A stretch of DNA of 61,566 nt, filler included, from Bipalium vagum (taxonomy: Eukaryota): the NCBI GenBank assembly GCA_037834085.1. It is 3 parts of 3 records of this genome, joined end to end, with 100 filler letters (N's around TTAATTAATTAA, not from the genome) between each part and the next. Parts side by side here need not be neighbours in the genome. Positions count along the whole stretch, not along the records: positions 41,148 to 61,566 come from JBBMKC010253721.1; 2 more parts are not named here. One strand, written 5' to 3'. Made by a program: the position numbers and the translations under genes. Shown piece by piece: positions 29,235 to 61,307 of the stretch (the first letter of the stretch is position 1; each line of letters begins with the position of its first letter). Under the pieces are notes generated by a model, which saw nothing but the letters and a program-made list of their open reading frames with translations, had not been told where the DNA came from and did not search any database.

Positions 29235-32200
29235 ATGAAAAATAATTCTATTATTGTTCTCATTGATATGGACTGCTTTTATGTTCAAGTTGAATTGAAA
29301 GAAGCACCTGAATATATTGGTAAAGAAACTGCTGTTGTTCAATATAACTCTTGGCGAGGTGGCAGGTTTTGTGCTTACCAAATAATCTTGAAAAATTAAT
29401 CTCATCCAATTAGCATAATTGCAGTTAGTTATGAAGCTAGAGCTGCAGGTGTAAATCGCTCATTGAAAGGCGACAAAGCCCAACAACAATGTCCTAATTT
29501 GCATTTATTTCGAGTTCCAGAACTCAGAGGAAAAGCCGATCTTAGAAAGTTAAAATGAAAATTATGAAATTATAATTTTATTACATCATGTGAAGGTATC
29601 GCAGCGCAGGAGCAGAGGTTATCAAATGTCTCACCAAACATGCTTCTCGAATTGAAAGAGCCAGTATAGATGAGGCTTATATAGATTTAACTGGTATATA
29701 AATTATGTGAATTTTTGTTAATTTTTAATGATTTTGTTGATATAAGTATAAATATTTTGTTCAAAAATTGTATCAAGATAAATTTATCAAACTATGTTTA
29801 TTGATTCTAATTTAAAATTGATTATTTTTTACTAAAGTTATTATTTATTTTTATTTAAATTTCAAAATTGTCGTCAATTCTGTCCATATACGTTGGTTAT
29901 CGTCTAAAATGTTGAAAAAAAGGTATTTTGAGTGTTTTGAAGTTCTTGTTAATTTTTGGCTTAACATATTGATTTTTGTTAATAAAAGTGATTGCGTATG
30001 TTTATTTTAAAGTCATTTTTTTATTCTATTAAAAAAACTAAAAATACTTTTTACAATTTTAAAATTTTTTTCAGTGGTTTCATTTTAAAATATATTGATT
30101 TTATTCTTATAAAAATGTTATTAATTTTCCACTAGATGAAGTCGATAATCTTCTGATAGCTTCTCCGGATTCAGAGATAATGAACAAGTTCTGGGAAAAG
30201 TCTAATCATTCATCAGCCGGTTGTCATGTTGTCGGATACAATTCGTACAACGATTGGCTGGATCATATTTTCAAGATGCGATCAGCTGGAGAATTGTGTG
30301 ATGACATAAGACTGGCACTGGGAGCTTTTCTCGTTCAGCAAATTCGCGATGACATATACGATACTCTGGGTTATCGGTGCTCCGCTGGCATAGGTCACAG
30401 TAAGATGGTCGCGAAATACTCATGTGGCGTCAACAAGCCCAATCAACAGACCATCACTCCATTGGAAAAGGTTCAAGATTTGTTGGTCAATGCTCCCATT
30501 GAAAAAATGTATGAGTTCGGTTTCTATTGATTTACGAATTTATTTATTTCAGCCGTAATCTTGGTGGAAAAACGGGTTTTTATGTTCAAGAACAATTGAA
30601 AATATCAACAATGGGAGAGCTGGGTCAGTTCTCTATTGATGAATTATCGGAAAAATTTGGTGAAAAAACTGGGTGGGAGTTGATTTTTAATTGTGTTCAA
30701 AATAATCTCAAACATTTTTATGAACTTTTTAATTAAAAACTAGTTTTAATAATGATTTTGTTTTTCAAAAATTAATCTGAAAATTTTATTTTCAGTAATT
30801 TTAATTTCTTTTAAAATTCGAGTTTAAATAATATTCTAATTATTATTATTATTATGATTTTATTAAATAAAATTCTTCTAAAGATTTTTGATAATTTGAA
30901 AAATTATTATCGTTTTTTTATTAAAATCAAGTTTTTATATTGGTTTTTTTTATCCTTTATTATTTTGAAATTTTTTTATATTTGAAAATATTTTTATTGA
31001 CTTAATTTGATAAATGAAATTAAATAATTTATTATCAAATGAAATAATTTAATTTTTATAAGTATAGTGATTTTTTTATAAAAAAATTTTAATTTGAAAA
31101 ATAAGTCTATTAATATATGTTCTTATTTAAAAATCACAGATTTTTCATTTCTGGAACTATAAATATATTGATTTTTCGTCCTTTAATATATTTATTTATA
31201 CGGTTCTACAGGCCGTGGCTTTTTTATCTTTGTAGAGGACAAGATGACGAAAGTGTTTTGTCCAGACAGCTTGCCCAATCGATAGGCTGTAGCAAAATGT
31301 TCCCCGGATCAACACAGCTGAATACGATCCATCAAGTTCAACATTGGCTGACGCAAATGGCCGAAGAAATCGCCGAACGAATCGAAGAAGACTGTACAAC
31401 AAACGCTCGACTGCCAACGCACATGTGCGTTTCATATCGACAATTGCGTGCTGGGAACGGCACGAATTCCCATCGAAGCCTTTCCGGATCACGAGTCGTT
31501 CAGTTGAATGGATTTTCAGCCCAATCAATCAGCTCTGCAGCATTTGTCGTTCTGTCTGGAATCAACAATGCCAGCCATCACAATCTTGATGACGGAACCT
31601 GGTCTTTGTTTTGTGTAATCAATAATCGATTTTCTTCTGATATATTGGGGTTTAGGTTTCCGCCTTTAATCTCTTTGGGTCTGTCAGCTGGCAAATTTCG
31701 AAATCAGAAATCATCAAATGATATTTCTCGGTATCTAATCGATGCTCCGGTCACCCGATTAGTAGAAAAAGAAAACGCCCCCCAGGTTGTCAATGAGGCA
31801 TCCTCAACCAGAGATACAGTGAAGATGGAAGAGGAAAATGCCATGTCTGTTACTGAGACGGTGCCTACACAATCGGTACAAGACGATATCAAACCATCGA
31901 TTATTGCACAGCCGCAAGAAAAAACCATATCGATTTCTGATCAGCCAATTGTGAAGAAAAAGGCCAAAGGGTTTTTTGCCAGACTTCAAGAACAGAATGC
32001 GATTAGTCAACTGGAATGGAATCAGCCAGTTTCGCTTTGTCACATTGCAAAAGTTGATCGCATTCAATGGAAAACTGGACCAATCGTTCCGAAGGAATCG
32101 ATCGAGGAAAATCATACAGATTTAAGAAGGGGAGGAGAGGAATCATTTGTGGGAGATCTTATCGAAAAGGAAGAGTGGAACGAATCGAATTCATCTTGTT

Positions 32201-32469
32201 TGACCTCATTTACCAATGAAGACTATTTCAATTGTGAAGTTTGTGGTAAAAATGTTCTCATGTGGGATGCACCAGAACATAATGATTGGCACGTCGCGAA
32301 AAATCTCCAAAAACAGATAACGAAGGAAATCAATGACCAGATGGTGACACGATCGACACCAACAGCACGGTCGGCGATTGGTAATTGTAAAAAGAAAGAA
32401 CGAAAGACCAAAGGTATTCTTGCTCAATCGAAAAATCAACTGACTTTAGATAAATTTTTTTCCAAATGA
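29235..32469 (+). CDS. POLH: DNA polymerase eta (Y-family); exons 29235-29365, 29414-29548, 29596-29693, 30136-30508, 30553-30672, 31212-31601, 31656-32469
   Basis: DMDCFYVQVE, AVVQY, IIAVSYEAR, RGKADL, ERASIDEAYID, CSAGIGHSKMVAK, NKPNQQT, RNLGGK and SIGCSKMFPG. C-terminus has a UBZ finger (CEVC..EHNDWH), a basic NLS and a PIP box (QLTLDKFF). All splice phases are compatible. Confidence 0.97.
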
Positions 32470-41147: not shown

Positions 41148-41454
41148 TTGAGCAGTGGGATTTGATTAATACTGAAGAGCTCGACAAACTGATTTTATCA
41201 ATGCCAAACAGACTAAGTGAATGTTCATTACTAATTTTTATGTATAGATATGTATTGCATGTTTGTATTCATAATAAATTTTTTTGATTTAATAATTAAT
41301 AATGGAAACAGTAAGAATTTTTATATATAATAATAAATTTTCAAAATGATACACTGCAAAAAGAACAAAATAAGTATTTAATAAAATCTAATTGTATATG
41401 GAATAATAGATTTAAATGAAAATATAATAGGAAGGTTTTATGAAAATGATATAT

Positions 41455-41820: not shown

Positions 41821-42258
41821 TCTTTTGTGATCTTTTTAATTAACATTTGATCTTAACATATAATTATTTAATTATACATATTTGATCTTGACATTTAATT
41901 ACTTAATTATTGATTATTTATTTTCAGTGTGATACAATTGATTTTTATTTAAAGACAGTTGATTGAAATTTTAGTGATTGTTTGGAATATTTTGTATTGT
42001 TGTTGAAGCAATAAAGTGTTTTATTTAGTCATTTGATTCATTCAATTGCGTACACGTATAGGAACAAGTGAAGGGAACGTAACGTTTCGAGCTAAGGTTA
42101 CGACTGGGTTCATAGTGAAATAATATCGTAATAGTTCTAAAAATTTTACTCAATAAGAAGTATATGCACACACCCTTTATTTTTGTATATTTAAAATTAC
42201 CAAATATATATATATATAATCTATTGACAAGAAAGAAATTGATGTTCACTGTCATCAT

Positions 42259-45200
42259 CTAGATAAATTCAAAATTTTCGGTATTTATTGTCGAAAGGTC
42301 CTAAATATTTTTTCATTATATTTTAAATAAAAAATGTAAGAACCCCAGATAAACCTGAATTTATAAATTAGATCTGAAAAAAAAAACTATAAGTTTACCT
42401 TCAGTAGAAATGTCATCAAACTGAACAATAGATCAAATTTAATTAAATTATATTGTGATTATAAAATTAATCAAAATGTAATTAAAATTTGAACTAGACA
42501 ACATTGAAGTCTCATCAGTTTCTTCAAGCATTTAATGCGCTTCCTCTACTAATTTACACATATAAAATAAAATCATTAGTACATGTCAGAAATGTAATTT
42601 TGATCTATTCATTTATTTTACCTTCTAAGTGTTTTTTAACAAAGAGTATTCTAAACCTAAATTAACTTACATTAGACATTCCGACAATGTTTAAATAAAG
42701 TAAATCTCTTTATTTAAATTTAGTAAATTTATTTTAGTTAAAATAAAATCAAGTAATACATAATAATTTTCTATTTAATAATATAATAAACATTAATTAT
42801 AAACATTATATTATAATTATCAATAATAATATATAATTTTAGAATATACTAAATATAAAAGAAATATGAAAGAATGAAAAAAATTCCATAGGAAATGATT
42901 TACATTAACGAAATAGTTCGGAAATATAAAAGTGGAAGAACGATTGTTGATATTTGCTGCGATTTTAATAAGAAATACAAACCGTTATATGAATTATATT
43001 AATATATGATTTCATTATATAAAAATGGATTAAATTACAATGAATAATATTGTAAAATATTTTTCAGACTTTGTATTTTACAATTAATTCTTAATATATA
43101 TTTAAACAAATGGTAGTAGGATGCAGCCTATACTCTATTTTAGCCACTGATTTTTATTTCAATAACTCACTTGGAATCAAAATTCATTGTAAAAATAAAA
43201 ATATTTGATGATTACCAAATTATAAAATTTTAAGTCCTTAAAAATTAACTTTCCTAGATACAGGGTTTTTATACTCATCTCGGAAAAAATTACAATACAA
43301 ATATTTTTCATGGCTTCTTTATTAATGCATCTTGGTATGAAACTTATCATATGATGATAATGTAATGCACAATTACTTGACGATATTAATGTATAACTGT
43401 ATTTATAAGCTTAATTAAAGTTTCTCCATCTGATGGACACGATTGACTGATGATATTTTTCCACTGAGAATGACATTTTATTGGTTTTATGTTGATCCGT
43501 TTCATTATTTTTTCTAGAATCCTTTTTTGATTTAGGTTTACTTTATTCACTGGTATCAATATTAAAAATAAGATCCATATTTACGAAATTAGATCTTCTA
43601 TCTTCCAAAATATTTTAGATAATCTCTTGAAAGCTACCTGAAATTGCTGCAATTTTCAAAGAAATTTTTGTGATCCAATACTGCCACAATTTTTGCCAGG
43701 ATTTAAATATATCAAGTTCAGTCAAAAGTTATTCATGTTTTAAAGTAAATAATTTACTTACAATTTTTTTTAACACAAATCACATTAATTCTCAAAATAT
43801 AGTCCATCAGTTTCTATAACTCGAAGCCATCTCTTTGCCAATTGCTCATTTTCATGGCGATAACCCTCAGGTTTTTTGAGGCAAAGAATTTTGTTATTTC
43901 ATTTTTGAGCTCTTTCTCTGAACCAAAGCGTCTCCCTCGTAAAAAATATGAGAGACCGAAACATGTGATAATCAGAAGGAGTAAGATTCGGGCTATACGA
44001 TGGGTGGGGATGACTTGGATGCCTTGCAGTTCCTGATTTTCCACTTCACTATTCATGATGTATGAGCTGGAGAATTATCATGCTGTAGGAGTGTTCTACC
44101 GCGATTCAACAATGCTTGGTAACAAGTGCTCAAAGCATCATGAACTCGCTGTAGTTGTTCAGCATATAAGTCACCATCGATAGCTCGACTATCTGGAACA
44201 AGTTCCCAGTGCATAGGGCCCTCGTAATTCCACTAACGCACAACATCACTCTCTTTTAGAAGCGAACTGGTGAAACTACATGCTGAATTGGCTCGCCAGG
44301 CAGAAGCCACAACTTACCTCTACTAGAATTACGAAAGAAAACCAACTTTTCATCTCCTGTAATAATGGGCCTCCAAAAGCGGTTGTCTCTGATTAAAGCG
44401 ACGAAACCACCACTGAGCTGTATTTTCCTTGAGGACATCCTTGCCTTTCACGTCTTAAATTTCTAGAGTTGCAGCTGCCGCTGAGAGACTTTTTTCCAAT
44501 AATGATGTAATAGGATCCGAATTACTACTTTTTCTTCAATCATTCTAACTGTAAAAATAAGTAAATGGAATTTTATAAATTTAAAATGTAATTACATTCT
44601 TCTTTTCAAGGGCTTTTAAATGATACCAAAGTTTTCATATAAATATTATTATTAAATGACATGGTAAAACAAGAACTTTAAATAACAAAAAAACTTTTGA
44701 CTCAACCTGATAATAGGTCCACTGAATTGAAAATATGTGATTCTCTCAAAGTTTACAACATGTATTCTATATTTGGAATTGGAAAAGCTTGCCTTTAACT
44801 TAAACTTCATTTTTAATATTTAATATTAACTTAATTTTTATACTTAAAGGAAACAAAATTCCATAGTGTCAAAATTGTGTTAAATTGAATTCGATTGGTC
44901 TAATTATGTTTTTTGAGGAATGAATTTATAAATAAAATATTTTTCGAAATAAAGTATTCTTAAGACTACTTATTGTTAAAGTAAGAAAAATATTACAAAT
45001 CTTGTTTTTATAAAATTTAAATGTGTGATAAAATATATAATATTATTAATAATAAAATGAGACTAAAGAAATAAGTAAAATTAAACTACCTTTTCATTTT
45101 TATCAAAGACAATATCTAAAATAAAAATAACAATAAAATGGTATAAGTGACAAATGAGAAAGTTAATGGAAAGTTCTTTTCATCATGTTATTATTGGGTT

Positions 45201-48200
45201 GTTCGTAAATTCACTTAGCTTTTTTAATACCTGTCTTTAAATCTTAATTTAAAGTACTTAAGTCATTTTAAAGGTTGGAATATTACTGTCACACCACGTA
45301 TCTCAGAATTGAAATAATATATTCAGAAAATGAAAGCAATGGAAAACACAAAGTAAATATAAAACACGCACAATGTCTAAACTGTAAGTTTTAACATTTA
45401 AAAAATATTTTTATAAGAATTCTATTTACGGAATTGTTTTACATAAAATCTGCCTTACATATTTGTTAGAATAGTTTTAATTAGCTATCAAGGAATTTTA
45501 TATAATTTTTTATTTTCAGGATTTAATATATTTTTACCTTTAAACAAGTCAATGACTTGACAGAAATCATTTGAGATTGCCTGAAAAATAATTATTATTG
45601 ATAGAATATATATATTATTTCACAATAAAATATACCAAAAATCCAAGAGTAGAGTGGTATTATTATATTCATTTATAAAATTCATAGCATAAAAATATTT
45701 CAAAATAAATTATTATTGGGTTGTGGAATAAGCTCGGAATTATTTTCATTAAAATTAAAAGATGGAGTTCTTATACCATATACCACAACCCTTAGACTTC
45801 ACCATATGCATATTTCATGTCTCGCTTCTGCTGCATTCACCTTTTTAGATGAAAAAAAAGATGTGCCTAAAATTCTGCTTCAGATCTTCAGCGTAATTTG
45901 CTGCATTCATTATGAAATTACGAATGGCATAAAATTTTTTGTTAAACAATTAAATTACAAACAAACAAATTATAAACAAACCCAGATATTATTCATAATT
46001 ATTTAAAAATTGTATTTGAATTTAGCAGTTGAAAATAATGCAGAGCTTCTTCCACAACTTAATAAAATTATTAAGACCAAGGTTTATAAAATTTTTGGCA
46101 TAAAATTTCTTTCCTTGTTTTCTTTTTTAACAAAATAAGTTGAATACATCTATGAACTTTATTTATTTTTTAAAATTTTTTTAGAATCATAAAATTAGAA
46201 ATGTAATTTGTAAAGGTAATATTATGTAGACGTTCTTTTTGAGACGTAGATATTGATAAAATGCGGAATTTTACAATTTTAAAGATTTTTCTAAAATTTT
46301 AAAAATTCATAAATAGATAAATAAATAAGATAAAAACTTAAAAATAAAGCGAATTTTGAAAGCAAAAGGTTTTAATCAATTTTTTTCGAAGAAGTAATTG
46401 TACAAAAAGACAATAATTTGTTTAGGTGATAGTTTAGATGAAATATGTGGATTATACTGAAAATCGTATAAATTGAAATGTCTATAACTAAACCTATTAA
46501 GTTTTAAGGATTTATGAAAGAATTTTGAAGATATTTGTTGCCTCTTTTTTGGTTTTCAGTCATGATGGAGGGGATAATAATGATAATTAAAATTATTAAT
46601 AATAAATAAATTAATTGATATCAGCAAGTTAATGTAATATGTTTAGTAATAATCAAAACGATGCGAAACAAGTCTTCAATAATTTCATCGCTACCAGAGA
46701 TACGGACTTTTATGCAAATGGCATAAATAAACTTGTGATTTGTTGACGAAAGTGTACTGATTCAAATGGATCTTATTTTGATTAGCTGTGCTTTTTTATT
46801 AAAATATATGCTTTCATAGTTCTATATTAAAAAACAACATTATTTTTTGAACAACCTAATAATTATATAAAATACTAAAATTCAATGTTGAAAATTATAG
46901 GAAAATCTACAAATCATAAAAATATCGGACGTGATTAATGATAGGTAAATGAAACATCAACTAAAGATATTAATAAATTATCTTTAAGGGTTTCTCGGTG
47001 ATATGTTTATTAATTATCAATTATTGCTGATAATACTTCTGATTGAATATTACATATGATGTGCCTCCGAGAAAACCAGCAATCATTTTCCCAGAAGTAC
47101 AAAATCTTAGTTAGTCAACAGAATTGAATCAGTTTTGAGACATATCTCAATTTATCGATGAAAATATCAGTTTCTGACAAATGGGAGTGTAGAGAAAGAA
47201 ATAAGTACTGGAAGATCGAGTATTTCTAAGAAAAAGATTGATCGTATTAGTTAGGCCTTTACCAATAATCCAAAGCAATCATTGCGATATGCAAGTAGGG
47301 AATTACAAAATAATAATCAAGATTTCTTGATTTTACAATGTGGAGCACTGTACAAATACCGCGTTCTACAGTGCACAAAGTAATTCGTAAGCGCCTTCAC
47401 CTTTATCTGTACAAAATTCGACCTTTTCATATGTTGTATGCGAAGGACAAGATTAATCGCACTAATTTTGCTGTGAATATGCTGGAACGATTAGGTAACG
47501 ATCCGCATTTCCTTGAAAAAATCCTGTTCACCAATGAGTTAACCTTTCATGTGTCAGGGATTGTAATAGACATAATTACAAAAATGGGGTTCTGAGAACC
47601 CGCTGTTATTTCAAAGCATGAAAGAGATACTCAAAAATTAAATGTGTAGTGTGGCCTTTTTCATAATCAAATTATAGGTCCTTTTCTCTTTGTGGAGAAA
47701 ACCATAACAGCTGCAAGTTATCTTGCTATGATCCAACAAAAAATAGTCAAAAAGCTCCAAGGAAATAACTTTCACTCTACAAGATGGTTCACCGCTGCAC
47801 TGGAGTCTTTCGGTTCATTATTTCCTCAATAATTAGTTGCCTGAAAGATGGATAAGAAGAGGCGTCCTGACCAACACGATCACCAGATTTAACCCCCCTG
47901 TATTTTTTCCTCTGGAGTTATGTAAAAGATCGCGTGTGTTCAATCAAAATAAAAAATTTGGAACATTTGAAAAGTAGAATTACGGATATTGTTGCAACAG
48001 TGACTGCGGAAATGCTGCAAAACACCTGGGTTGATATTGAATACCGGCTTGACACACTACGCGTAACAAATGGCTCCCATCTTGAAATGTATTGATAATG
48101 ATTAATGTGCTAAAACTTTTATACATATACCATATACATCTATTAATTGTTTATGTAAATAATTTATGTAATTTATTCATTTCATAGTTATAATAAATTT

Positions 48201-51200
48201 TCATTTTTGTACGATTCTGTTATGGACACCCTGTATTTCACTTTGAATTATTACAAATTATTCCGTAACATATTTCGCATTATTATTTTATTTTTGTAAG
48301 CACTTTAAATTAATCACCATATTCTTTTATAGATTTTATAAAACCGTGTAGTCAATGAATTGCTAATTAATTATATTAGGTCGTCTCAAAAGTAATGTCG
48401 TTTTTTATAGTTAATATTTATTTGAATATCGATTTTTTTACTATATTAAAATCATAAGTAATTTGGCGAAGTACGTAATTAATAATTTTTTATTGTAAAA
48501 ATTTAAAGAACACATTAAATTTGTAAAAATGACAGACAAAATAGCAAGTGAGGAACACACGCAATTGCATGCTGTATGAATTTAACCATGAGAAAACTGC
48601 ATCAGAAGCAATGAAATCAATAAGTAAAATTTATCCAGATACTCTCGATCTGAGGACATGTAAGAGGTGGTTAAGACGGTTCAAAGACGAAATGTTGATT
48701 TATGCAATGCCTCTAAATCTGGTAGGCCATGGGCTGTAGATATGAATGCTATCAAGGCTGCTGTGAAAGAAAATTCATCTCAAACCCTGGATGACTTGAG
48801 TAATGAACTCAATTATGATAGAGAAAAAATTCGTCGACATTCACATGATATGGGAAAAACAAGTAGAGCAGGAATAAGAGTACCACACTAACTTAGCGAA
48901 AAACACAAAAATCAGCTCTTTTAAACTTTCAAAATGCTTATTTTAATGTAGAATAATGAAAACTTCTTGGACCGCATTATAACTGGTGACGAAAAGTAGC
49001 TTATGTATGTCAACTCTAGTCGTAAAAGGCAATGGTTCAACTGACCAAACACCTGAATTCACCGGAAAGCCAAATATTCATGGAAAAAAGGTTTTGCTGT
49101 GTTTGGTGGTTGCTCGTGGTATAATTCATTTCGAGTTGCTCCATAATGGTCAAATATTAACCACAGATATTTACCGCGCCTAGTTAGAAAGGTTAAAAAC
49201 CAAAAATAAATTTAGGAAAAAGAGAAAAGGAATCATTCTCCATCAAGATAATGAGCGACCGCATATCGCAAAGAAATCACTCCAGAAAATTAGGGTGTTT
49301 GACTGGGAACTTTTACCTCACCCTCCATATAGTCCGGACATTGCACCACCCGATTACTATTTGTTCCGACCAATGCAAAATTTTTTAGTCGGTAAAAAAT
49401 TTAATTCTTATGAAGCTGCTAATATGGCTATGCACCAGTTTTTCGATTCCAGGAGTGAAAACATTTACAAGGCTGGTATAATGAAATTATATTGTAAATG
49501 TAATGACATTGTGGAACATAATGGTGATTACGTTTGTGATTAATATATATGTATTTTAAGTAAATGTTTTCTCAAACTTTTTGTAAAAAAAAAATTACTT
49601 CTGAGACGACCTAATATTAAACAAACTAGTCGAATTTATAGGAAATGAATTTACCATATTATTTTCGGTATTGAACATATCATCAGAAACTTCCATCATT
49701 CCTGAATTGTTTTCTAAAATCAAAATTACTAATTGAAAGTATTACAAGAATATTCAATACTTAAAAAACAAATTTAATGTAGGAAATCTCAAAATTCTGT
49801 TTTTTACCCATTTTTAATCCAAAACTTTAAAATTCTGAAAATTATCAACAAGATATAAAGATAGACATGTTCATTTTTTTATTCCTTTCCTTTCACTTTT
49901 GTTACCTTTAGAGAAAAAAATTAATCTAGTTTCGTATATCATGTTACTTAATAATATTATACAAGGTCTTCCAAAAGAAGCTTTAATACTTTTAATATAT
50001 TAAGTACTAAGTAGTTTTTGTTTAAATAAATTAATATTTAACATTATTCTAGCTAAACATTTGAAAATAAAATATGGATCGTTATAATATGCAAAAAGGG
50101 ACAGAAATTGTCAAAATATTTTATCAAAGCGGTAGTTCAATTTCAGTAACCGTTAAAAAATTAAATGCAAAATTTGGGAAAAACAAATGTCAATCAAAAC
50201 CAACAATTTAGAGTCTTGTTAATGCTTTTGAAGCATTTGGTTCGGTAGCAGATAGACCAAAATCTGGACGACCTCGATCTGCGAGTATACCTGAAAATAT
50301 TGCAAGTACATGAGAAAGCATTGAAGACAATAAATGCACCCTCAATCAGTCATAGAGGCTTTCACATCATCCCACAATGGCTCAATTATATTCAGATCTG
50401 GTGATTGAGTCGACCAATCACTCAGTACGCATAATTTAGACTTTTCCAAAAATAAAGTCACCACTCTTGACTTATGGCATGGAACTACGCTTATTGAAAT
50501 ACATTGGCAGCAACCATTTCTTCAATACATCCTGATAGGCATCAGAATTCATCCGATCCTGACACCTTATGAAAACTCTGGATCCATCTTCTTTGATTGC
50601 GCCACAAGCCATCAATCTTTTTCTTCAAAATTTAACAGTTTTCGTGATATATTTTGGATTATACCTAGATCCCTGAGGTCTGTGGACATATTCTCTTCTT
50701 CTAGAAAACAGTTCTATCGGGGTTTCATAAGTAAAAATCACGTCATTCCAAAAAGAAGGAAAAAGTTTGCTATAATCTCTGCACTACTTTAAGAGATTCT
50801 TGATATGTCGCTCATTTATTATAAATATGGTTTCTTCGCTGCAATTTGTCCGAACAAGCAATACTTTCTCAGAATGCGCTTCACAGTACTAACTGAAAAA
50901 GTTTGGATGGATTTCCAATCGATAAAAAGATCTCGTGCTGTTTTCTGGGGATTTTGCTTTGACATTCGAATAAGTGATCTTTCTGTATTTTTCGGATTAC
51001 AACCATGTCAATCCTCATATTTTGCCTCCCATCTTCCCAAACCTAAATCTATTGAACTACTACGTGTTGGGCGTTATTGAGAAAGAGATCAATGAAAATT
51101 TTTATAATATTTTGAATTCACTATAAGCCACCTTACTCAGAGTAATGTCCATGATGAGCTAGGACCACACAGTATTTAATAAATAATTTTATCTCAGTTT

Positions 51201-54200
51201 TAAATTTCAATACAAAGATTTTAGAAATTCTTTTTTAAAAGTTTCTATGGATGAAATATTTAATCAATAAACATTGTAATACCACAAAATTAAAAAGTTA
51301 CCTTTGTGGTTTAGTAGATCAGATACTTGAGCACTTTGGTCCAAATTATTTTCCTAAATTAAATGATCATTTTGACTCGTGTATGAAATGATGAGAAGTG
51401 AATTAATTATACAAACATATCAATTATAATTATGTACATATAATACTTTAATAAAAAATTTAATAATATTGATTAATTAATAAATATAATAAATAATAAT
51501 TAATAATATAATAAATCAATGTTACATTCTAATATTGAAAATCTTTTAGTAATTGATTAAACATAGATAAAATTATACCATCTTCGTCATTCTTATTTTT
51601 TGTTTTATTAGCATTTCGAGATGATTTAAAAAATTTAAAAATTGAAACAAAAAAAATGGTCTTCAATAATATTGAAGTTTTGTATTTATTTATAATACGT
51701 ATATCAATATTTGTACGAAATTTATTTAGTTTTCTTACAAAAATAACTTATATAATATGCTTATTAACTTAGGAACAATCAAATAATAAAGTGAAGCCCT
51801 GTTGTAGGAATGAAAAATATAAAACTAAATATTAGATTAAATACTTAATTAATTTATTATTATTTATTATTTTAAATTATTTTTTTTTGCAATTCTTATT
51901 TATAAACATTGTATCCCAAGAGTGATTATCACTAACAAAAGATTGATGAATATTTTTAAAATATGAAAAAAAAATTTGACTTAATAATAATATATATAAG
52001 AAATATGAAAAGCATAAGTTAACTATATTCTTCTCTTCGAATTTCAAAACTTCTGAGAAAATAAAAAATTTATTACACTGTTGATATCTGAAATTATAAA
52101 AAAATCATTAGTGTTTTTGAAAATATTAATCAACTAACAGTCTTCATCAAGAGTATTCAATATTGGATCCTGAATTCGTGAAAAAATAAAATTTAATACA
52201 AGAATTTTGATAATTTCTTACATCTGGTCTTCCTGAAAAAAAATGAAAAAAAAGGTTAGTAGAAAGACTAATAGTAATCTAAATATTATTTAAGTCAAGT
52301 AATTAAAATTTTTTTCAAAATGTAAGAAAAATATTACTTTAAATACACGAAAATCATTATAACGAAAGGCCATTAAAAATAAAAAATTGTTTAATTTTAT
52401 TATTTTCTCACTAAATATATTAAACGTAAAATAATAATTTTTTTTATTTATACAAGTTTTAAATATCTTTGAAAATATACATGTTTTTTTTTACCAATAT
52501 TTTCTTCTAGATAATGATGTATCAGATAGTATTGGGTTGGCAAATAAGTCTATTCGTTATTTTTAATGAAAAAATAAGACTGCAATGATTTTATTGATAA
52601 AAAAATTTTAATCAATTATGTATTGACCATTTTGATTAATGACTCCATCCATATTTCTACAAATTTCATTATTTCCTGTTTGTAGAACTCCTCGCGCTTT
52701 AAATGACTCATCATCTTTTATGAAAGATGATCCTGGTTAAAGTATTTTTTAGTGACTTAAATAAATAATAGTCAGTAGGAGGTAGATGAGCCAAAACATC
52801 ACCAAAGCTCAGTAATCTGTTCCGGTTGACTAAAAAGAAGGTATGAGGTCTAGAATTGTCGCGCTGAAAAACCAAGCACTAGCGACTTGACATTTTTGTT
52901 TGTGTGGATGAATTTTGTTAATTGCAAGTAGTACACATTCAAAGTGATTGTTATGCTAGGTGGCAGTAGCATATAATAAATGACAGCTCTGAAATACTAC
53001 CAAATTGAAAGCATTATTTTTTGAGGTAAGAAAGTCTTCCGTAAAAGGTGATGGTGTGTATTGGACTAACCTTTGACGTATTCTAAGCTACCAAAACACA
53101 ATTCAGCAAGACTATATTTCGTTAAATCCTTGCAAAATATGAAAGGGAGCTACTTTGAAGCAGTTTTATCGATAAATAGGATAGTGCTAACTGTAACATA
53201 GAGATTGAAACAAAAAATTGAAAATTCAGAACTTTTTAAAAAAAACTAAACGATCACAGAAAAAAAACTGATTCATTCTGACAGAATTTTGCCTAAAGAT
53301 GGATAAAATGTTTATTAATAAAAAGTTTTAATTAAATACATTTCGACTTATTCTTTGTCAAAATTTTTTAAATGTACTGAGTTTTGATGTTCAATTGATG
53401 TCAAACGTCATTCAAAGATTTTATCATTCATTATTGGCCACCCGTTATAAAATGATGTCAAAAATAAAAAAGCAGGCTCTCATATTTATTCTAATTTCAA
53501 ATTAACTAAAGAACAATTTTTTTACTAAGTATTTCGTGATTTATTAAGATATGAAAAAAACTCACTTTTTTTAATTTTTCGCTTGGATATGTCTGTGGAA
53601 GGAAAATTATATGTTTGGCTTGACTTGCCAAAAGAAGGACACCGAAGGCTATATTCTAAACTTTCTCCAGATATGCGAAATTTCTCAGGAATGATAAATT
53701 TAAACACGAGAGTTCTATTTGGATATTCACCCTAGAATAAGGACTATGCATAATGAACTTAAACAAAAAATAAATATTTTGAAAGCCAGAAAAAATGTCT
53801 TTCGTAGATTCTTTCAATATAAAAATAGTTGGAAATGGAAGATATTTAATTTTACTTCTGTGTAGGAACATTTTAATAAGTCCTTTCCAAGTCGTAATCT
53901 CATTTCAGATGGATAATCTATAATTATAATTGTAATTTTAATTTCCAATATTATAAAATTTTTAGGCGTACATCCAACATATTTATCAAGTGTCAATATA
54001 AGAACTCCCCAGCTGTCACTGTTTGGAGGCAGTCCATTGGCGACTATATCCAAATTTTCACAAATTTCTTGAACTGAAAGAAGTTGAACAAGTTTAAAAT
54101 CCCTACAAATCAAAATCTACATTTGTGTCGGATAAGCTCAGATTGGATCATCAGTTTCTCATGTTTGCCGTGAATTTCTACCTGAAGTCTGGAATTATAT

Positions 54201-57200
54201 TTTGACCTGTTCGGTCCTAAAATGATTTTTATTAAAATATTAATCAACAATTTTTGAGATTAAGATATTAAACGCTATTTAACATAATTAATTAAGAAAT
54301 TGAAGTTTAAAAATCCAGCTTTTCATCTGGTACTCTAATAAATATAAGAAATAAGAATGCAAAAGTATTATACTGACATTTTCTATTTAAAAATGAAGTA
54401 ACTAATATTTTTAGTACTTTTTTTACTTATTATTCTTTCTTTATTCAAACTATTTTTAGTAAGAAATTATCTATTACAATATATTTTTTATAATTTTCTT
54501 ATCACAATTATCAGTTTTTTATGAAAGACGTAAAAACACTTGTGAAATGTTTATTGCTCAACAAAGAATAAGTCTACATCAAAATTTAATAAGTAATAGA
54601 AAATTGATTCATTTTGATAACCATAAATAAGAAAAAACATTTGCAACTCCGGCGAGCCACCAAGAGCAACTCCAAAGAGAAGTTTCCTCTGAAATAATGC
54701 TATTTTATGCATTTGGTGGAACCATTAGGGCGTAATTCATCATGAGGTGATACAACCTGGTCATACGATTACAAGGGATATATAAAAAGAACAAACAATG
54801 CGTGCGAGCTAGAAACTGCGCCAAAACCGACCATAGTTGGACAAAAGACAACATAAACTCATTTTGTTACACGACAATGGTCTGGCGTTTACTAAAAAGG
54901 AGTTCAGTTCCCCCCATCGATGGGAAGTTTTACCCCGCGCAGCTTTCTCACGTGTTCAACAGCACTTCAAATCCTTTGAAGAAGATGAAAATTGAGTACC
55001 TCACTGGGGAGCCACTAAGGATAAAGATTTTTTAGCTGCGGAATTTATAAGCTTCCTGAAAGATGGACAAGGTTATTGTTAACGATGGTCATTAATTTGA
55101 TTAATGCATATTTTTTTGTTTGTATATAAAATAGACATTGAGTTGTTAAGAAAGGCTCATTTTCTTTGCATGCATCTAATAAAAACTCAAATATGGTATT
55201 AACCATTATTCAAGTACATACGTTTTCTAAAAATCAAGTGCAAATGTTAAAGAAATAAAATGGGTGGATTTTATTGCCAAGAGTCAAGAAATTCCCTGTT
55301 GCGGAAAAATAATGAAAATTTTTTCACTGCTTTAATTTTCTAATACAATTAATTATCAGAAAAACAAAATAAGTTTTAGTGTTTCGGTCTTCTAACTTCA
55401 TTAGGTAATAAAAAACAAAAAAATCTACAATAGAAAACATTTAAATTAAGAGTAGTTTTATGAAATTTTTGTTAGTGATTTAAAGCATCACTATTTGGTT
55501 GAAATTTACTTTAGCCCAGTCTTCTTAAAATGAGCTAATACAAGAATGTTACTAATGATTACCATAAACTTCAAAGATTATATTACAGCATAGAAAATTA
55601 ACAAAAAATTATTATTATTATTAAATATAAAGATTTATAACTAGACTGCATACGATAAGTTTTTTCACCAAATTCCAAAATTAAGAGAAGATTAAGCGTT
55701 AGTAGAATTACAGATATTTTAATAAACATTGATTATTATAATAATAAAGAGAGAGATATGATAAAAAACCGTTTCTGAGAATAGGGTTGAGTTATCTCTG
55801 GCTTTACCAATTCAAGTGGCATTGATTCATACAATTCAAAATTTTAAGGTGTAGAGATGCTTCCTTTATTGTCTTCCAATATCCTTTCGAGGTGCTTGAT
55901 GTTGTATTTCTCAGTCTTCAAGACGGAGAGCTACGCAGGTATTCAAAGGAATTTGCATCTGGTGAGTTACCGGTCAATTAAAGGATCAACACATTTTTCG
56001 TGAAAAAATTTTGCTATGCTTTTGTGAAACATTTATTGGGGTGTTGTCAAGCATAAATCTGTAATGTCTCTTTGGATATATCAACTCCAATTATATCATC
56101 ATCATGCTTTGATATTCCTTAGAATTGGGAGATAATTTAATGCACCTAATAGGACCAACACCGTTAATAAAATAACAGCCAATACATCAACCTGGATGTC
56201 ATTTTTGACATTTGGAAATACAGTTTTTAAATTATATTTTCCTCTTTTGCTCGAGTAACAAACTGTAATCTCCTATTTGATTTTAACTGAAAGATGTTTT
56301 CATCTGAGAAAAGCAAAGAATCCAATCCATATCTGATTGGCCAACAGGAGAACATTGAAATTAAATCTTTTCTCTTAATAAGCTGTTTCATGTAGAGATA
56401 TGGTTTTGGAAAATCTCTCTTTAGGCTATTTAGGCCAAACATAAGCAGAATTTTGGAAAAAAGAATATATATTTATCATTCTAAAAAATTCTGATATAAT
56501 TTCATTGAATGTTGCAATGTTACCAGATACATTCTTTAGAGAAATTTTCTTCTGTAATGAGGATATTTTATGTCTCTCAGCTCTAAATATGTTTGCAATT
56601 GTCCCTAAAGAAATAAGTTTTTATATAATATTCTGACAACCACGTTTTGATTAAATGTAATGAAAGTTCTTTTTCAATAGATATAATACATCCTTCCCAT
56701 GGTTTTCCAACTTTTCATAACGCCAAAACCACTATTCCTTGAGATTCTGTTAAAAATTTACCATTCTATTAAATAGTAGGTCGTATCAAATGTTTCCATG
56801 ATTTTGATAGCTTAATTTTCTTTTATCAATATAATAATAATAATAACAATTCTTTAATAACAATTTTAAAAAATTGAGATCATTGATATTTTACTATCAA
56901 ACTATATTTGGAAGTTTTGTTTAAATAACCATATCAATGCATTTATTTTAATGTACTATACAGTAAAATGAATACAGAGAAATTCAATTCGAGGCTTAAT
57001 CTGTCATTATTGGAAAAGGAGATTTACTATTGCTGCCATGTTGTTGTCTATAGCACAGTCTCAGATTAGTTCAAAAAGTTAGAAAACGGAGATTTAAGTC
57101 TCGAAGATAGGCCCCCCCCACAAAGGAAGATCTTCTGTAGTAAATGAAGGGCTTCTACAGGAAGCATTAATTGACCATACACATGTCTCAACGTGTGATT

Positions 57201-60200
57201 TATCTACGATGAAAGAAATATCTAAAGACACCATTAATCGCCACCTGAGAAAACTTGGATACAACTATAAATGATTTCATATATGTTATTGCATTATATA
57301 TTATGTGTGATAGTTTATGCAAATTTTGATACAACCTAATATCATTGATTTAATTAAGCGAAGATTATAGTTAAAAACTATGAAAAATTAGTTTTTGAAA
57401 TTACTTTCATTCTTATTAATTTTGTAGGGATGAACAGTGTACGTGGTGCAATAAAGTAAAAAATATAACTGTTATGATTATTAATTATTATAAAGATTTA
57501 TAAATGGGTTTTATATTTAATATGAATTAATTTAATTAAATTAAAAAAGGCAAATTGTAGTTCTTTGACCAGAATCGTATTATTACAATAAATTAATATA
57601 AAAAACGTATTCAACACTTATGTAGTTTATTCTTGGTGTATGAAACAAAATTATTCTGTATCCGGGTATTATGTATAGATTTCAAGAATCACAGTAAAAT
57701 TCGAACTTCGGATAAATGAAACTGAACGATATTTAAAACCAGTGGGAATCAAAACTAACATTTTCAAATTGTTCCTAACTTCTGAAATTTGCACTTTTTA
57801 TGTTTCCTCACTACCTGTCATTGAATGTTTCTCATAAAATAAGATTAACCATTTTCTTGGAAAGCCAATTATTAAATGTTGACATATTAGTGATATTTAT
57901 GTCTTCTTTACGATATTTTTTTCCTTGTGACTATAATGTTCTACTCTTGCAAATCTCTTGAAAACAACTAACTGTAAAGCTACACAGAAATATTGTGACA
58001 GTTAAAATCTGATCTGATTCATTCTTTAAAAGATGATCTGTTTTTTTCACTAAAATGAAGATCTGAATTTCTCTTCGTGAATATTGGTAAAAATGTCTGA
58101 ATTCATATCAAATCAAGAATAAAGCTGACCGAAAAAGGAGAAAATGAAATTAGATAAATATATATTCATGGTGGTTACCAATGTTCTATAATAAATGGAA
58201 TTTATAGTTTTATAAAATTTTTAATTTTTTTTAATAATCAGTGAGAGTAATGATACTAAACTGGTACTAAAGTTCATTAATGATATTTTACTTACTATAA
58301 AGTATTATTTTAGTGAATCTCGATTTTGATAATCATTCATAATAATTTATTGATTTTATATTTTAATTTTAGATAAGTACAATAAATAATTAATGAAATT
58401 AAAAAAAAATTAATGAAAATTAATGAAATTGGTTTTGAGTTTCCATTTACTGTTTTATTGAAAAATTCAATAGTTAGAACATAGATCGATTTTCTTTGTT
58501 TTAATGTTTGTCAAAAAATATCTGATAAATTTTTCCTTGCCTTTTTTCTTTTCCAAAATTAGTTATGTATACAAAGTAATTATTTCTTTTCCAAACCATC
58601 ATATAATAATTATGTAGATCATAAAAGTATTGTTAAGTTTTAACTACTAAGTTACCATAACAATTTTCTATTTTACAATGTAAATATGAACACAATATTT
58701 TGTCAGTAATATAACCGCATGAAAACTAAATTTTGATACATGCATTTTAGATTTCTATTTTTAACAATATTTTTATCATACATAGAAATTAATTAAAGTG
58801 TAATTATTATGAAACAAAATTTTATGATCAATAACCAAAAATTTATCATAAAAATTAAATAATAATTATATTGCACATAAAGTGATTCAATAAATATTAA
58901 TTAATTAAATTTTGAAAAAGCTTTTACTAGGGTGATGAAAAGTTCGTGCTCAGAATCTGGAGCTGAAATCGGTGTGGTTTGTAAAGATTTTTTCGAATCA
59001 AAACAGAGAAATTGGCACTTTGACCGGATAAGAATGCTATCAGATCGGTGTAGTTATGGACTTTATTTCGAAGAGTAGTGTTATTTTTATAAATAAATAT
59101 ATAATTTTGAGCACGAAATTTTTGCATCACCCTAGTAATTAAAGAAACAAACAATGATTGTTTAAGTTTTAAAGTAATTGTCATTAATGATATAATATTC
59201 ACATGAACAAGGTTTAAAAAGGACGAGATTCAGCAGTTTCCTTTAATTTGTCAATTACACAAGGAAATATATAAGTGCTCACTCTTATTTGATTTAGATT
59301 CATATTCAAACTGAATTCCAATGAAATCTAATCTGAAACAAGCAACATTATAATTTGCTTCAAAGATTTCTTACTTTAAACAAGGAATCATAGTTTCATC
59401 AATTGTTCCTTCGATTTTTTTTTCAAATTTTTCTTTTTTCAAAATGAATTTCTCGTTTTTTTCTGAGTTGTACAATGATAGATGTGTACAAATTTCTTGA
59501 TCATCATAGTTGATCAATTTAAATGTGATTTTGGAACCAAGATATGGACTTAAATTCTGAAATGAAATACTTTTAAAATCACATTTATTTTCCATTGCTA
59601 TAATATCGACCTCAATACGCATAAACGTTGAGCTGCTGAATAGAAATGAGCAATTCCCCCTTTCTACATCTTTGGGATAGCGATATCTAAGAAGAATATT
59701 ATGAGATGGACAAATCTAAAAATTAAAAAAAAACAACATTAATTTATTTAGAAAATAGAAACATAAAATTATTATTTAAAAAATGGACAATTAGAATTAT
59801 TTTTCGTTCAATAATTTATATTGTCCTCAAAAACATTTGTTAAATTAGTTCAAAAAAATAAACCAATAAATACAGTTTTTATTTTAAATATTTTTTAAAT
59901 TGAAAATAAATATTAGAAAAATTATTTAAATTTATTTAATAGGATTCTTTATTAAATATATTTAACAGTAACACGCAAAGATAATGAAAGATGTAATTCA
60001 TTTAATTCACTTTGGAGTCACAAAAAATTCGTTTAAATTAAGCTTTTCAATTTTGGAAATAATTTCCTTTTTTATTAATTTTTTCAATTATTTAAATTCT
60101 CGGAGTGAATTAAATGAATTATGATTTTTGCAGATGATAAGGTGGATGTTCTGGCCTTAGGATTAGAAAAGGGATAAAAATCTTGGCCGAATGAACTTCA

Positions 60201-61307
60201 GAGTAAAGAGGACAATTGAAATCAGATTTCAAGATGAAAACATTTTCCTCAGCATATTAAGATCATTAGGTAAGATATTAGGTTATGCAGTAGGCTTAAT
60301 TAAAATTTTTATTTATATTATTCACATTACTCAAGTTATTCCGGAATTTTATTTTCGTTAATATTATTTTTATTAGAGATTTTTTTCATTTTGAAAATAA
60401 TTTTATAAAACATTAAGTTTGTGTTTTATTATTAAGAGAGTGTGGAGAATTCCAGCATTAGGTAGGTAAGTGCCCACAAAGTACGGGAAATATTGTACAA
60501 GGGGTCAAAATGAAAACTAGTAAATCTTAAGAAGATCAGCAATTTAAAGATAGAAACAATTGACCTTTCTATGGAATAACATTGATATAGTGATTCGTTT
60601 CTTTTTTCTTAGGATAAAAACATAAAAACTAAAGAGTATTTTTTCTAAAATTTTTACGTTTAAATTGCGGTTTTAAAAATCAAGGAATAAAGAAAAGCCA
60701 GTAAAACAATATTTTGATAAATGATTTACCATTTTGCAGTTATTGATGATTCCATTAATTATCCTAATACCATCAACAATCTTTGAAGCCAGGAACAATA
60801 AATTAAGATATATACGTGAAGTGTTAATAAATTTTTAAAAAGAACCTACATTTTATTGTGTATAAGTAAAGTAAACCAAACTATATTCTCTTTCGTAGAA
60901 CTAATCAAATTTTATTTTATTGAAAGAAGATTGCACAGTCAGAAATTATCCGAATATTTATAATTACAAACGATAGTAATTGGCAATCACAAAATACATA
61001 AATCGTTCACTATCAACTTTTTATTGAATGTTTCTGTCCATCTTTTTTTCATATATATTGGCTCAAAAGTTAATTAATACAATTTATTAATAAAAGGATA
61101 TTGGAAAAAAGAGAAGTAACATGTTTAATCAAAGTAATTTCCATTATTTTCTAAGAGGATTTGTCATCTTAAAAATAAATTCATTATCCTATTTTCTTTA
61201 ATGTAAAAAAGTGTCTAGAGTGCTTTTTATATCGTCCAGTAGAGTGAAAATGACTAGTTGAGACCACACCAAACCATTTTTAATTGGGCGCGATTTCCAC
61301 TAGCCAT
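42259..61307 (-). CDS. putative divergent Rel-homology-domain (NF-kB/NFAT-family) transcription factor; exons 61307-61275, 59715-59611, 59556-59375, 59332-59283, 54216-54121, 54073-53972, 53917-53856, 53731-53566, 52232-52222, 52169-52139, 52087-52077, 51353-51302, 49713-49655, 42420-42399, 42354-42344, 42300-42259 (~344 aa); possible short form ending at TGA 52044
   Basis: All junctions are GT-AG and phase-compatible, and many introns are 42-54 nt like the other genes here. The product has QLKMICP, LRYRYPKD, PYLGSKITFKLI, DFIGIQ, RLQVEI..SELIRHK..NLDI, LILTLDK, TLVFK, LRCPS..SQTYNF and KRKIKKRR in RHD/IPT/NLS order. The core (59715-52139) is more certain than the first exon and the last five exons. 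Confidence 0.72.
43712..44710 (-). mobile_element. decayed mariner with both TIRs
   Basis: TIRs tcaagttcagtcaaaagtt and aacttttgactcaacctga with TA flanks. Motifs IITGDEK, PMHWELVP and LLQHDNSPAH. Confidence 0.9.
45716..46062. mobile_element. internally deleted mariner (MITE-like)
   Basis: About 30 bp TIRs (ttgggttgtggaataagctc... and ...gagcttcttccacaacttaa) with TA flanks. The minus strand retains NAAEARHEIC. Confidence 0.8.
46650..46860 (+). mobile_element. mariner 3' end remnant
   Basis: DFYANGINKLVIC*RKCTDSNGSYFD* followed by TIR ...tgaacaacctaa and TA. Confidence 0.8.
47040..48233 (+). mobile_element. rosa/DD41D-like element, decayed, with right TIR
   Basis: LFTNELTFHVSG, IIGPFLF, QDGSPLHW and RSPDLTPLYFFLWSYVKDRV. 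Ends ...ggacaccctg followed by TA. Confidence 0.85.
48376..49614 (+). mobile_element. near full-length mariner (DD34D), pseudogenised
   Basis: TIRs ttaggtcgtctcaaaagtaat and attacttctgagacgacctaa, TA flanks, 1239 bp. Motifs ITGDEK, HQDNERPH and HPPYSPDIAPPDYYLF, with stops and frameshifts. Confidence 0.95.
49960..50340 (+). mobile_element. rosa-like element 5' fragment
   Basis: MDRYNMQKGTEIVKIFYQSGSSI...FEAFGSVADRPKSGRPRS. Confidence 0.75.
50340..51000 (-). mobile_element. Tc1-like transposase remnant
   Basis: FWNDVIFTYET..YVHRPQGSRYNPKYITKTVKF..MNSDAYQDVL. Confidence 0.8.
51010..51170 (+). mobile_element. maT/DD37D-like 3' fragment
   Basis: PPIFPNLNLLNYYVLGVIEKEIN resembles WPPNSPDLNPLDYYVWGVVE. 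Confidence 0.55.
52532..53150 (-). mobile_element. decayed mariner inside the intron of the minus-strand gene
   Basis: TIR ttgggttggcaaataagt near 52532. Minus-strand remnants DNSRPH, PTDYYLF and NQNGQYIID. Confidence 0.75.
54600..55180 (+). mobile_element. mariner 3' remnant
   Basis: CIWWNH*GVIHHEVIQPGHTI, LLHDNG, IYKLPERW and a 3' TIR-like end. Confidence 0.75.
55780..56765 (-). mobile_element. decayed Tc1-like element
   Basis: LLFSDENIFQL, GCYFINGVGP and SPDANSFEYL-like motifs with many lesions. Confidence 0.7.
56777..57339 (+). mobile_element. internally deleted mariner
   Basis: TIRs taggtcgtatcaaa and tttgatacaaccta. Encodes FKKLENGDLSLEDRP..TINRHLRKLGY. Confidence 0.75.
58927..59135. 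mobile_element. 209-bp Tc1/mariner-type MITE
   Basis: TIRs ctagggtgatgaaaagttcgtgctca and tgagcacgaaatttttgcatcaccctag, flanked by TA. Confidence 0.85.

Follow-up and report, generated by a model that had tools for sequence, protein, structure and literature searches.

Predicted small exons of alternating phase encode a putative acidic tail in a probable, highly diverged Rel/NF-kB-like gene of a land planarian

Results

A Rel-like core identified by intron register

We analyzed a 61,566-nucleotide stretch of Bipalium vagum DNA (the window; assembly GCA_037834085.1), of which positions 41,148–61,566 derive from contig JBBMKC010253721.1. On the minus strand of this contig we predict a gene of 357 amino acids, every junction of which is a DNA-based prediction. 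One sequencing run compared with the gene proved to be unspliced DNA, nearly identical to the window and perhaps its source; it contains no splice joints and has no bearing on the model. A candidate start codon at 60730–60732 would end a first exon; it is in frame with the following exon and has a phase 0 donor at 60729 (6.9 bits). Four putative Rel-homology exons lie downstream, at 59611–59715 (105 nt, phase 0>0), which carries an RYRY DNA-contact-like motif, 59375–59556 (182 nt, 0>2), 59283–59332 (50 nt, 2>1), whose GIQ motif is in register with RELA, and 54121–54216 (96 nt, 1>1; z 2.5 against the matching RELA segment). IPT-like sequence follows in exons at 53972–54073 (102 nt, 1>1), with an LDK motif in register with RELA, 53856–53917 (62 nt, 1>0) and 53566–53731 (166 nt, 0>1). 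The last of these ends in KRKIKK, to which splicing adds two Arg, so that an NLS-like basic cluster lies directly behind the IPT-like region. The host belongs to the hammerhead-type land planarians, its COX1 matching that of Bipalium adventitium at 94%. The contig terminates 1.1 kb past the stop of the gene.

All five junctions compared are in register with RELA, with phases 0, 2, 1, 1, 1, and similarity anchored on them yields p = 0.007; two of the five RELA positions and all RELA junction phases are ones that we take to be correct. Anchoring on only the three RELA junctions backed by isoform indels gives p = 0.013. The RYRY, GIQ and LDK motifs and the basic cluster occur in the expected order along the core. 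Within the RxRYxCE recognition loop, RYRY is kept at its expected place and CE reads KD (C to K, E to D); the segment matching the basic CVKK of RELA is acidic in this gene.

Sequence searches do not recover this relationship. Single exons had no match in Pfam, where the PF00554 (RHD N-terminal domain) profile did not recognize them, and a genome-wide PF00554 search scored one candidate, a mammal-like RELA scrap. The PF16179 (IPT dimerization domain) search matched solely an NFAT-like gene, and the IPT segments reach z-scores of 0.8 and 2.0 against RELA. Neither Smith-Waterman alignment nor an HMM built from mammalian RELA found a significant match in the joined core, and global alignment of the whole core to RELA gave p = 0.17. 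Comparison of the core with PDB sequences and 1.84 billion representatives returned only spurious matches to repeat proteins, and JGI metagenome contigs contained no homologue. A 114-residue piece that includes an intron folded, from the single sequence, as an all-beta structure with pLDDT 50, for which Foldseek found no match.

We conclude that this is likely a single-copy, extremely diverged Rel/NF-kB-like gene, its identity indicated by intron positions and not by sequence search. Searches of the genome with three protein and two DNA pieces returned the gene itself only, among best candidates, a scope that makes them weak for distant paralogues. No ankyrin-sized ORF lies downstream within the 1.1 kb to the contig end, and the inferred product is a class II-like Rel factor: RHD, IPT, NLS and tail, without ankyrin repeats.

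A chain of small exons behind the NLS

The first-pass annotation had placed eight small exons behind exon 53731–53566. All eight are present in the sequence: AG precedes each, GT follows all seven internal ones, and the introns between them measure 52, 51, 723, 1588, 7234, 44 and 43 nt. Joined after exon 53731–53566, the frame stays open to a TAG at 42261–42259 and yields a 79-residue tail. The chain is probably incomplete, however, as we add two exons, 45580–45538 and 45115–45090, within the 7.2-kb intron. The extended tail accounts for 308 of the 1,074 coding bases (29%).

We scored candidate exons with a splice model trained on 83 introns from the myosin genes of this genome, after 22 doubtful introns had been dropped by eye. 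Exon 1 (52222–52232; 11 nt, 1>0; acceptor 10.1 and donor 8.0 bits) ranks 2 of 401 candidates with a posterior of 0.97–1.00 and is very likely real, as is exon 2 (52139–52169; 31 nt, 0>1; posterior 0.75–0.98), in which four of ten residues are acidic. Exon 3 (52077–52087; 11 nt, 1>0) has a posterior of 0.23–0.87 as a spliced exon and of up to 0.48 as a read-through terminal exon, varying with coding weight. Exon 4 (51302–51353; 52 nt, 0>1) scores 15.2 bits against an opposite-strand maximum of 14.7. Exon 5 (49655–49713; 59 nt, 1>0) scores 12.3 bits and has five acidic residues in 20. Exon 6 (45538–45580; 43 nt, 0>1) lies outside repeats and, at 18.2 bits, ranks 1 of 401; exon 7 (45090–45115; 26 nt, 1>0; 12.2 bits; three of nine residues acidic) is less certain. 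Exon 8 (42399–42420; 22 nt, 0>1) combines a donor of 8.7 bits with an acceptor of 3.3 bits, and three of its seven residues are acidic. For the last two exons, exon 9 (42344–42354; 11 nt, 1>0) has a strong acceptor (9.9 bits) and a weak donor (3.2 bits, the 10th percentile of true donors), and terminal exon 10 (42259–42300; 42 nt to the stop) has a weak acceptor (2.9 bits, 13th percentile) behind an intron of modal length (43 nt). Candidates at 43646–43638 and 51798–51739 were set aside, as were 44721–44707, which overlaps a repeat end, and 52732–52628, which lies inside a repeat.

Although these had been labeled microexons, only four of the eight exons originally listed fit the 27-nt definition in PMC4978528, the other four exceeding it; in the extended chain, five of ten are ≤27 nt. 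Because 56 of the 83 myosin introns measure 40–66 nt (median 50), the four short tail introns are of modal size. The long introns had been described as mostly filled with transposable elements. This holds for the 7.2-kb intron (at least 53%) and not for the others (at least 42% and 16%). Dispersed repeats, mariner-like by eye, occupy 43701–44715 and 47147–48243 in the long intron and 48372–49617, the last with 33-nt terminal inverted repeats. Copies of the 43701–44715 repeat match at 79–89% on many other contigs, and its fragments had no Pfam match. The 1.6-kb intron holds a minus-strand remnant of a Tc1/Tc3-type transposase at 50409–51080, an extent taken from ORFs (PF01498, E 1.2e-8 on 50822–51007).

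Joint support for the chain

The first three tail exons together score 45.8 bits, compared with a maximum of 44.4 in shuffled sequence (40 of 40 beaten) and 32.8 on the opposite strand. Across 6.25 kb of unique sequence, candidates of ≥11.5 bits number 28 on the sense strand and 10 on the opposite one. We also searched blindly, over 5176 repeat-free bases, for the most acidic splice-plausible chain. This search picked exons 4 through 8 (51353, 49713, 45580, 45115 and 42420) plus an acidic end, with a net acidity of 16 against ≤8 in 450 shuffles (none of which reached 13) and 1–7 in natural controls. Without repeat masking, the observed acidity was reached by 0/40, 0/40 and 1/40 shuffles at three thresholds; in this unmasked test a control statistic, the most basic chain, also beat 39–40 of 40 shuffles at two of the three thresholds. 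Since the acidity statistic came from the hypothesis of the first-pass annotation, and since the basic-chain control also beat shuffles, these p-values are too optimistic.

Taken one by one, the distal exons score no higher than control candidates, and with composition added only 45580 exceeds them. A gene model without a composition term assigns posteriors of ≤0.54 to 51353, ≤0.27 to 45580 and <0.1 to 49713 and 42420. We regard the predicted tail exons as most likely coding, their product being an acidic tail that follows the NLS in a Rel-like protein.

Alternating phases and their consequences

With the two added exons included, all ten tail introns alternate between phases 1 and 0, a series with a probability of 1.5e-4 under the phase frequencies of this genome and absent from all seven of its myosin gene models. 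The internal tail exons measure 11, 31, 11, 52, 59, 43, 26, 22 and 11 nt, none a multiple of three. It had been proposed that removing certain exon pairs would preserve the frame, and this is true of all eight adjacent internal pairs (42, 42, 63, 111, 102, 69, 48 and 33 nt): phase alternation therefore makes any adjacent pair skippable in frame. In the predicted structure pair skips are frame-neutral and each single skip would truncate the tail. Among 512 exon subsets, 50 leave each exon in its home frame, and the resulting tails range from 17 to 102 residues. Alternative splicing of the tail is thus possible, but it is needed to explain nothing observed.

Composition, predicted activation and internal repeats

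The tail proved acidic, as had been claimed, with D+E accounting for 19 of 79 residues in the 79-residue chain versus 6.9% in control candidate exons, and with a net charge of -16 to -19. Its proposed role as an activation domain received a mixed answer when a predictor was applied to the long and short tails: the original Staller rule called 0 tiles and a relaxed rule 4 of 41, all at the edge of the rule and in the distal half of the tail. Expressed by the equations of PMC10550315, the counts are 0 for equation 1 and 1–7, at its edge, for equation 3. These predictions weakly suggest that the tail may be an activation domain. Removing the 11+31 pair leaves the number of predicted tiles unchanged (4 versus 4), which makes this pair a poor candidate for tuning activator strength.

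The tail is self-similar (p 0.004–0.007). An N[ST]EN motif occurs three times, with one copy arising only across the 52077/51353 junction and the third lying in exon 10, and an exact in-frame 12-mer is common to exons 49713–49655 and 42300–42259, present twice on the minus strand of the contig and never on the plus strand. It had also been suggested that the tail grew by exon-pair duplication. Examined at the exon, peptide and module levels, this idea found no clear support: one of 15 module comparisons and three of 21 exon pairs at the nucleotide level gave p < 0.05, and the N[ST]EN repeats do not fall in register with the exon pairs.

Alternative ends

A shorter product had been predicted from reading through the donor of exon 52087–52077, and a stop does follow at 52044. 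This predicted short form has a net charge of -2 and no predicted activation tile (0 of 1). The donor concerned, at 52076, sits at the 33rd percentile for this genome and is ordinary, not unusually weak. At the distal end the last exon is uncertain, with three candidate ends. Besides exon 42300–42259, an acidic stretch of 12 codons at 42221–42258 on the minus strand could serve as the terminal coding segment, entered in phase 1 (acceptor 3.2 bits); the AG of its acceptor is supplied by the final bases of the stop codon of exon 42300–42259, and the blind acidity search prefers this stretch over the last two exons. Alternatively, translation could continue past the donor of exon 42354–42344 to a stop. 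Because AATAAA occurs here at 2.7 per kb, poly(A) hexamers cannot discriminate between these ends.

Discussion

Under our preferred explanation, which we consider probable, the locus represents the 3′ portion of a very diverged, single-copy gene, likely of the Rel/NF-kB family, with about ten predicted small exons of alternating phase that would encode an acidic, disordered tail of about 100 residues. All tail exons would normally be included, by constitutive splicing across the modal 43–52 nt introns and also across the longer, transposon-swollen ones, and the tail would act as an ordinary activation region, its weak activation signal lying in the distal half. The exons could instead form a regulated combinatorial set, with 0>1 and 1>0 exons skipped pairwise by cell type, so that splicing would set how strongly the factor activates; the read-through form would then be an activation-less, p50-like repressor. 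Frame preservation by all eight pairs and 50 subsets, a short form of net charge -2 with no predicted activation tile, the regulated microexons of Schmidtea (PMC4978528) and the Dorsal/Dif C-terminal swap (PMC4500392) are consistent with such regulation. Alternation of phase, however, brings frame-neutrality with it automatically, extra machinery would be required to skip in concert two exons that introns of 0.4–4 kb separate, the 52076 donor is ordinary, and the predicted tile count stays the same when the 11+31 pair is lost. We hold regulated skipping to be doubtful. That a two-class cassette of asymmetric microexons yields, by pairwise selection, up to ~50 in-frame activation tails plus a tail-less repressor form strikes us as unlikely; if true, it would be a splicing dial on activator strength and an asymmetric counterpart of schistosome micro-exon genes. 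Pairwise skipping would be an unusual route to varying an activation domain; with constitutive exons the gene is a structural curiosity, and the main gain is to annotation.

The gene could also end early: only the first three small exons would be real, the protein would stop at 52044 (or, following exon 45580, at 45477), and the more distal exons would be relics or matches that arose by chance in AT-rich sequence. With the coding term removed, precisely the 52044 short form comes out as the best gene model (posterior 0.48), half coding weight moves the end to 45477 across a modal 53-nt intron, and the distal exons taken singly overlap with the range of the controls. Chance would nonetheless have to supply jointly the chain acidity (16 versus ≤8), a motif completed across a junction, the 12-mer of 49713 and 42300 and an unbroken phase series, and we judge an early end quite improbable. 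Less probable still is that the exons are real while the protein does not act as a DNA-binding activator of the Rel type: it would be a degenerate RHD protein serving as decoy or cofactor, or else a beta-sandwich protein of unrelated origin, with the tail a spacer, degron or DNA mimic. The failure of every sequence search to link the core to Rel, the lost motif Cys, the acidic CVKK-matching segment and the marginal activation prediction would fit such a protein; against it stand the junction register and phases, the motif order, and the long branches reported for planarian RHD factors in PMC13563047.

The predicted order of RHD, IPT, basic NLS and C-terminal tail, without ankyrin repeats, resembles that of class II Rel proteins (RELA/p65, c-Rel, Dorsal/Dif). 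The tail of RELA is encoded mostly on one long exon, whereas here ~100 Asn/Asp/Glu-rich residues would be distributed over ~10 exons of 11–59 nt. Drosophila Dorsal and Dif are described as exchanging C-termini through intron retention (PMC4500392).

Runs of very small exons also occur in other flatworm genes, including schistosome MEGs, whose symmetrical exons make up as much as 75% of the coding sequence of mostly secreted products, and SmVAL6, in which four normal exons encoding a conserved domain precede small ones (as described in PMC4015677). In contrast, none of the internal tail exons here has a length divisible by three, 29% of the coding sequence falls in the tail, and we predict a nuclear factor whose modeled N-terminus is an RHD-like exon. 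Triclads share exons of ≤27 nt: PMC4978528, on the CELF/MBNL program, describes 262 alternative microexons in Schmidtea, 64 of them regulated between stem and differentiated cells, and reports that 68.5% of regulated exons keep the frame, whereas here each single skip would break it. Both divergent Rel genes and microexons have already been published for planarians; our literature search on alternating-phase microexon tails and on how planarian Rel genes are divided into exons found no report, the alternating layout included.

The extreme divergence of planarian RHD factors leaves their class and function open. Intron register can identify such genes where profiles fail, and their tails will probably escape automated annotation. 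According to PMC13563047, Schmidtea mediterranea has seven highly divergent RHD factors, among them SMEST009320002.1, and one is essential, its RNAi being rapidly lethal. The tree in Fig. S4C of that paper could include an orthologue of our gene. The likeness between our gene and these factors consists of a triclad host, an RHD gene too diverged for ordinary searches, and a conserved NFAT5-like gene beside it; a well-conserved NFAT5-like gene is also present in the B. vagum genome.

Identity of the gene and its contig

The gene region lies in the third part of the stretch (41148-61566), which is the whole of a 20,419-base contig. From the single-copy depth of this contig (~22) and its matching base composition, we infer that it is the host's rather than that of a second flatworm (COX1 L007). 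The assembly contains several COX1 genes; the one that broken nuclear copies match (88-94%), L008, uses the flatworm code and is 94% identical to that of Bipalium adventitium and 86% to that of Obama nungara, which makes a land planarian of the hammerhead type the most likely host. L007, a second flatworm-code COX1, is 79% identical to the host's. The assembly is mixed (L007, L009, L011): besides the second flatworm's COX1 it contains no fewer than two other invertebrate COX1 fragments, and these extra sequences possibly come from prey or co-sampled animals.

Seven upstream exons encode an open 254-residue core, for which profile and pairwise searches returned no link to any family. Five consecutive core junctions (phases 0,2,1,1,1) are in register with those of RELA, and the flanking residues resemble each other more than they do in random registers (p=0.007 overall, and p=0.013 when limited to the three RELA junctions confirmed by annotated isoforms). 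The other two RELA junction positions and the RELA phases enter the comparison as general background. RYRY, GIQ and LDK motifs and a basic cluster occur in the expected order. Judged on these sequence features, the gene is very probably a Rel-family member, and it would work in the manner of the class II Rel factors. Within reach of our genome searches the gene is single-copy.

Two other contigs carry well-conserved NFAT5-like RHD/IPT exons (L004, G000:C25431; L005, G000:C51428), probably of one gene; in contrast to the Rel-like gene with its small tail exons, that gene seems to have its tail on long exons. A 229-nt fragment (L003, G000:C175846) of 58% GC, which differs from mammalian RELA by several substitutions (86% identity), is a contaminant and does not belong to the worm. 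A study of Schmidtea lists seven RHD factors, with long branches for all but NFAT5 (PMC13563047); the pairing here of a diverged Rel-like gene with a conserved NFAT-like gene resembles that set. A survey detected no p50/p105 among flatworms (PMC11432056).

A predicted tail of small exons

The first-pass annotation had proposed eight small minus-strand exons, from 52232 to 42259, following the exon at 53731-53566. All eight, with their flanks, intron lengths and product, were verified in the sequence. To see whether this goes beyond chance, we trained a splice model on introns from this genome's myosin head loci, using a spliced aligner restricted to GT and AG and removing 22 doubtful introns by eye. 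Because 56 of the 83 remaining introns measure 40-66 nt and donors are degenerate, introns of 43-52 nt and gtt-type donors are ordinary in this genome. The myosin II loci (L046-L064) include at least seven muscle-type and at least five non-muscle ones, which may reflect gene expansion or a second flatworm in the assembly.

The splice score of the first three exons (starting at 52232, 52169 and 52087) exceeds that of 40/40 shuffles and of the opposite strand, and a simple gene model assigns exons 52232 and 52169 posteriors of 0.75-1.00. Distal exons have posteriors of at most 0.54 in that model, and just one, taken singly, scores above controls; splice signals alone are insufficient to settle them.

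For the distal exons taken together, a search ignorant of the annotated exons covered the 5176 repeat-free bases beyond 52076 and sought, among all phase-consistent chains with plausible splice sites, the one with the greatest excess of acidic over basic residues. It returned exons 51353, 49713, 45580, 45115 and 42420 plus an acidic end at 42258, with net acidity 16. Shuffles (450, three kinds) gave a mean of 3 and a maximum of 8. Natural sequences used as controls, namely a 5-kb intron of the same gene, myosin introns and the opposite strand, gave 1-7. With repeats unmasked the best path strays into transposon pieces, and the acidic excess is still present (matched by 0, 0 and 1 of 40 shuffles at three thresholds). 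Run as a control for basic instead of acidic residues, the unmasked search likewise exceeds most shuffles at two of these thresholds, and the shuffle p-values are therefore too optimistic; the acidic excess is nevertheless the larger (22 vs 6 on the opposite strand, against 40 vs 34 for basic). There are independent hints as well: the tail shows internal similarity (p 0.004-0.007); it has three copies of N[ST]EN, one of them arising only by joining 52077 to 51353; and an exact in-frame 12-mer is common to exons 49713 and 42300. We consider it likely that the distal chain is real.

The annotated chain stands as given and is slightly incomplete, lacking two predicted minus-strand exons outside repeats. 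One (45580-45538, 43 nt, phase 0>1) ranks first by splice sites among 401 candidates in 12.4 kb; the other (45115-45090, 26 nt, 1>0) brings the phase back before 42420. A 353-nt MITE-like element (45713-46065), with 36-nt ends 86% complementary, lies between these exons and mariner-like copies. With both exons, the tail comes to 102 residues with a net charge of -18, in a model protein of 357 residues. The ten tail introns have phases 1,0,1,0,1,0,1,0,1,0, a series with probability 1.5e-4 from the genome's phase frequencies, although the pattern was spotted post hoc. None of seven myosin models having seven or more introns shows this alternation, and a literature search found no match for an alternating-phase small-exon tail.

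The 3' end has several candidates. The annotated end has modal introns (44 and 43 nt) and the third N[ST]EN motif, yet its donor and its acceptor are both weak. The AG within the stop codon there doubles as acceptor for a 12-codon acidic phase-1 stretch (42258-42221, minus strand), which the blind search favors; read-through of exon 42354 to a stop is a further possible end. The sequence of 42300-42221 (minus strand) may represent two coding pieces left by a past imprecise intron deletion, or else a small indel or alternative acceptor.

Function, origin and splicing of the tail

The annotation regarded the tail as a transactivation domain built by exon-pair duplication, with splicing tuning its strength. 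Its position and acidity make an activation domain plausible, and by rule the case is marginal. We applied equations 1 (original) and 3 (relaxed) of PMC10550315 to 39-residue tiles: none passes the original rule, and the relaxed rule is passed, at its edge, by 4/41 tiles of the annotated form and 1/64 with the two added exons, all distal. No tile of the predicted short form, which would arise by reading through donor 52076 to a stop at 52044, passes either rule. According to the same paper, these rules miss most true domains (sensitivity ~0.36 on acidic lists).

Phase alternation is the trace expected if a unit of two exons had been copied several times. At the sequence level, however, exons and modules have little in common, and the N[ST]EN copies are placed differently relative to junctions; duplication is thus a guess, somewhat less likely than not. 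Pair skipping is indeed frame-neutral, each adjacent internal pair summing to a multiple of three. Skipping any single tail exon truncates the tail, and 50/512 exon subsets retain the home frame for all exons. Regulated skipping would be compatible with the frame, with precedents in regulated planarian microexons (PMC4978528) and Dorsal/Dif C-terminal switching (PMC4500392). Most likely, this planarian gene is a divergent Rel member whose acidic tail is finely divided and constitutively spliced. It is not of the schistosome micro-exon type (PMC4015677): its exons are asymmetric and the tail makes up 29% of coding sequence.

Other features of the window

A pol eta-like Y-family polymerase gene (30099-32469, plus strand) has IMS, IMS_C and UBZ domains, its nearest database proteins being only 38% identical. 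Two long plus-strand ORFs (17406-18622) encode a rhodopsin-family GPCR (PF00001), neuropeptide-receptor-like by eye, and a minus-strand exon (12341-12739) encodes the V-ATPase proteolipid c subunit (PF00137). Decayed elements comprise a non-LTR-like retroelement ORF with a weak zf-RVT match (26713-28140, plus strand) and what is left of a reverse transcriptase, truncated where the first part ends (15949-16831, minus strand).
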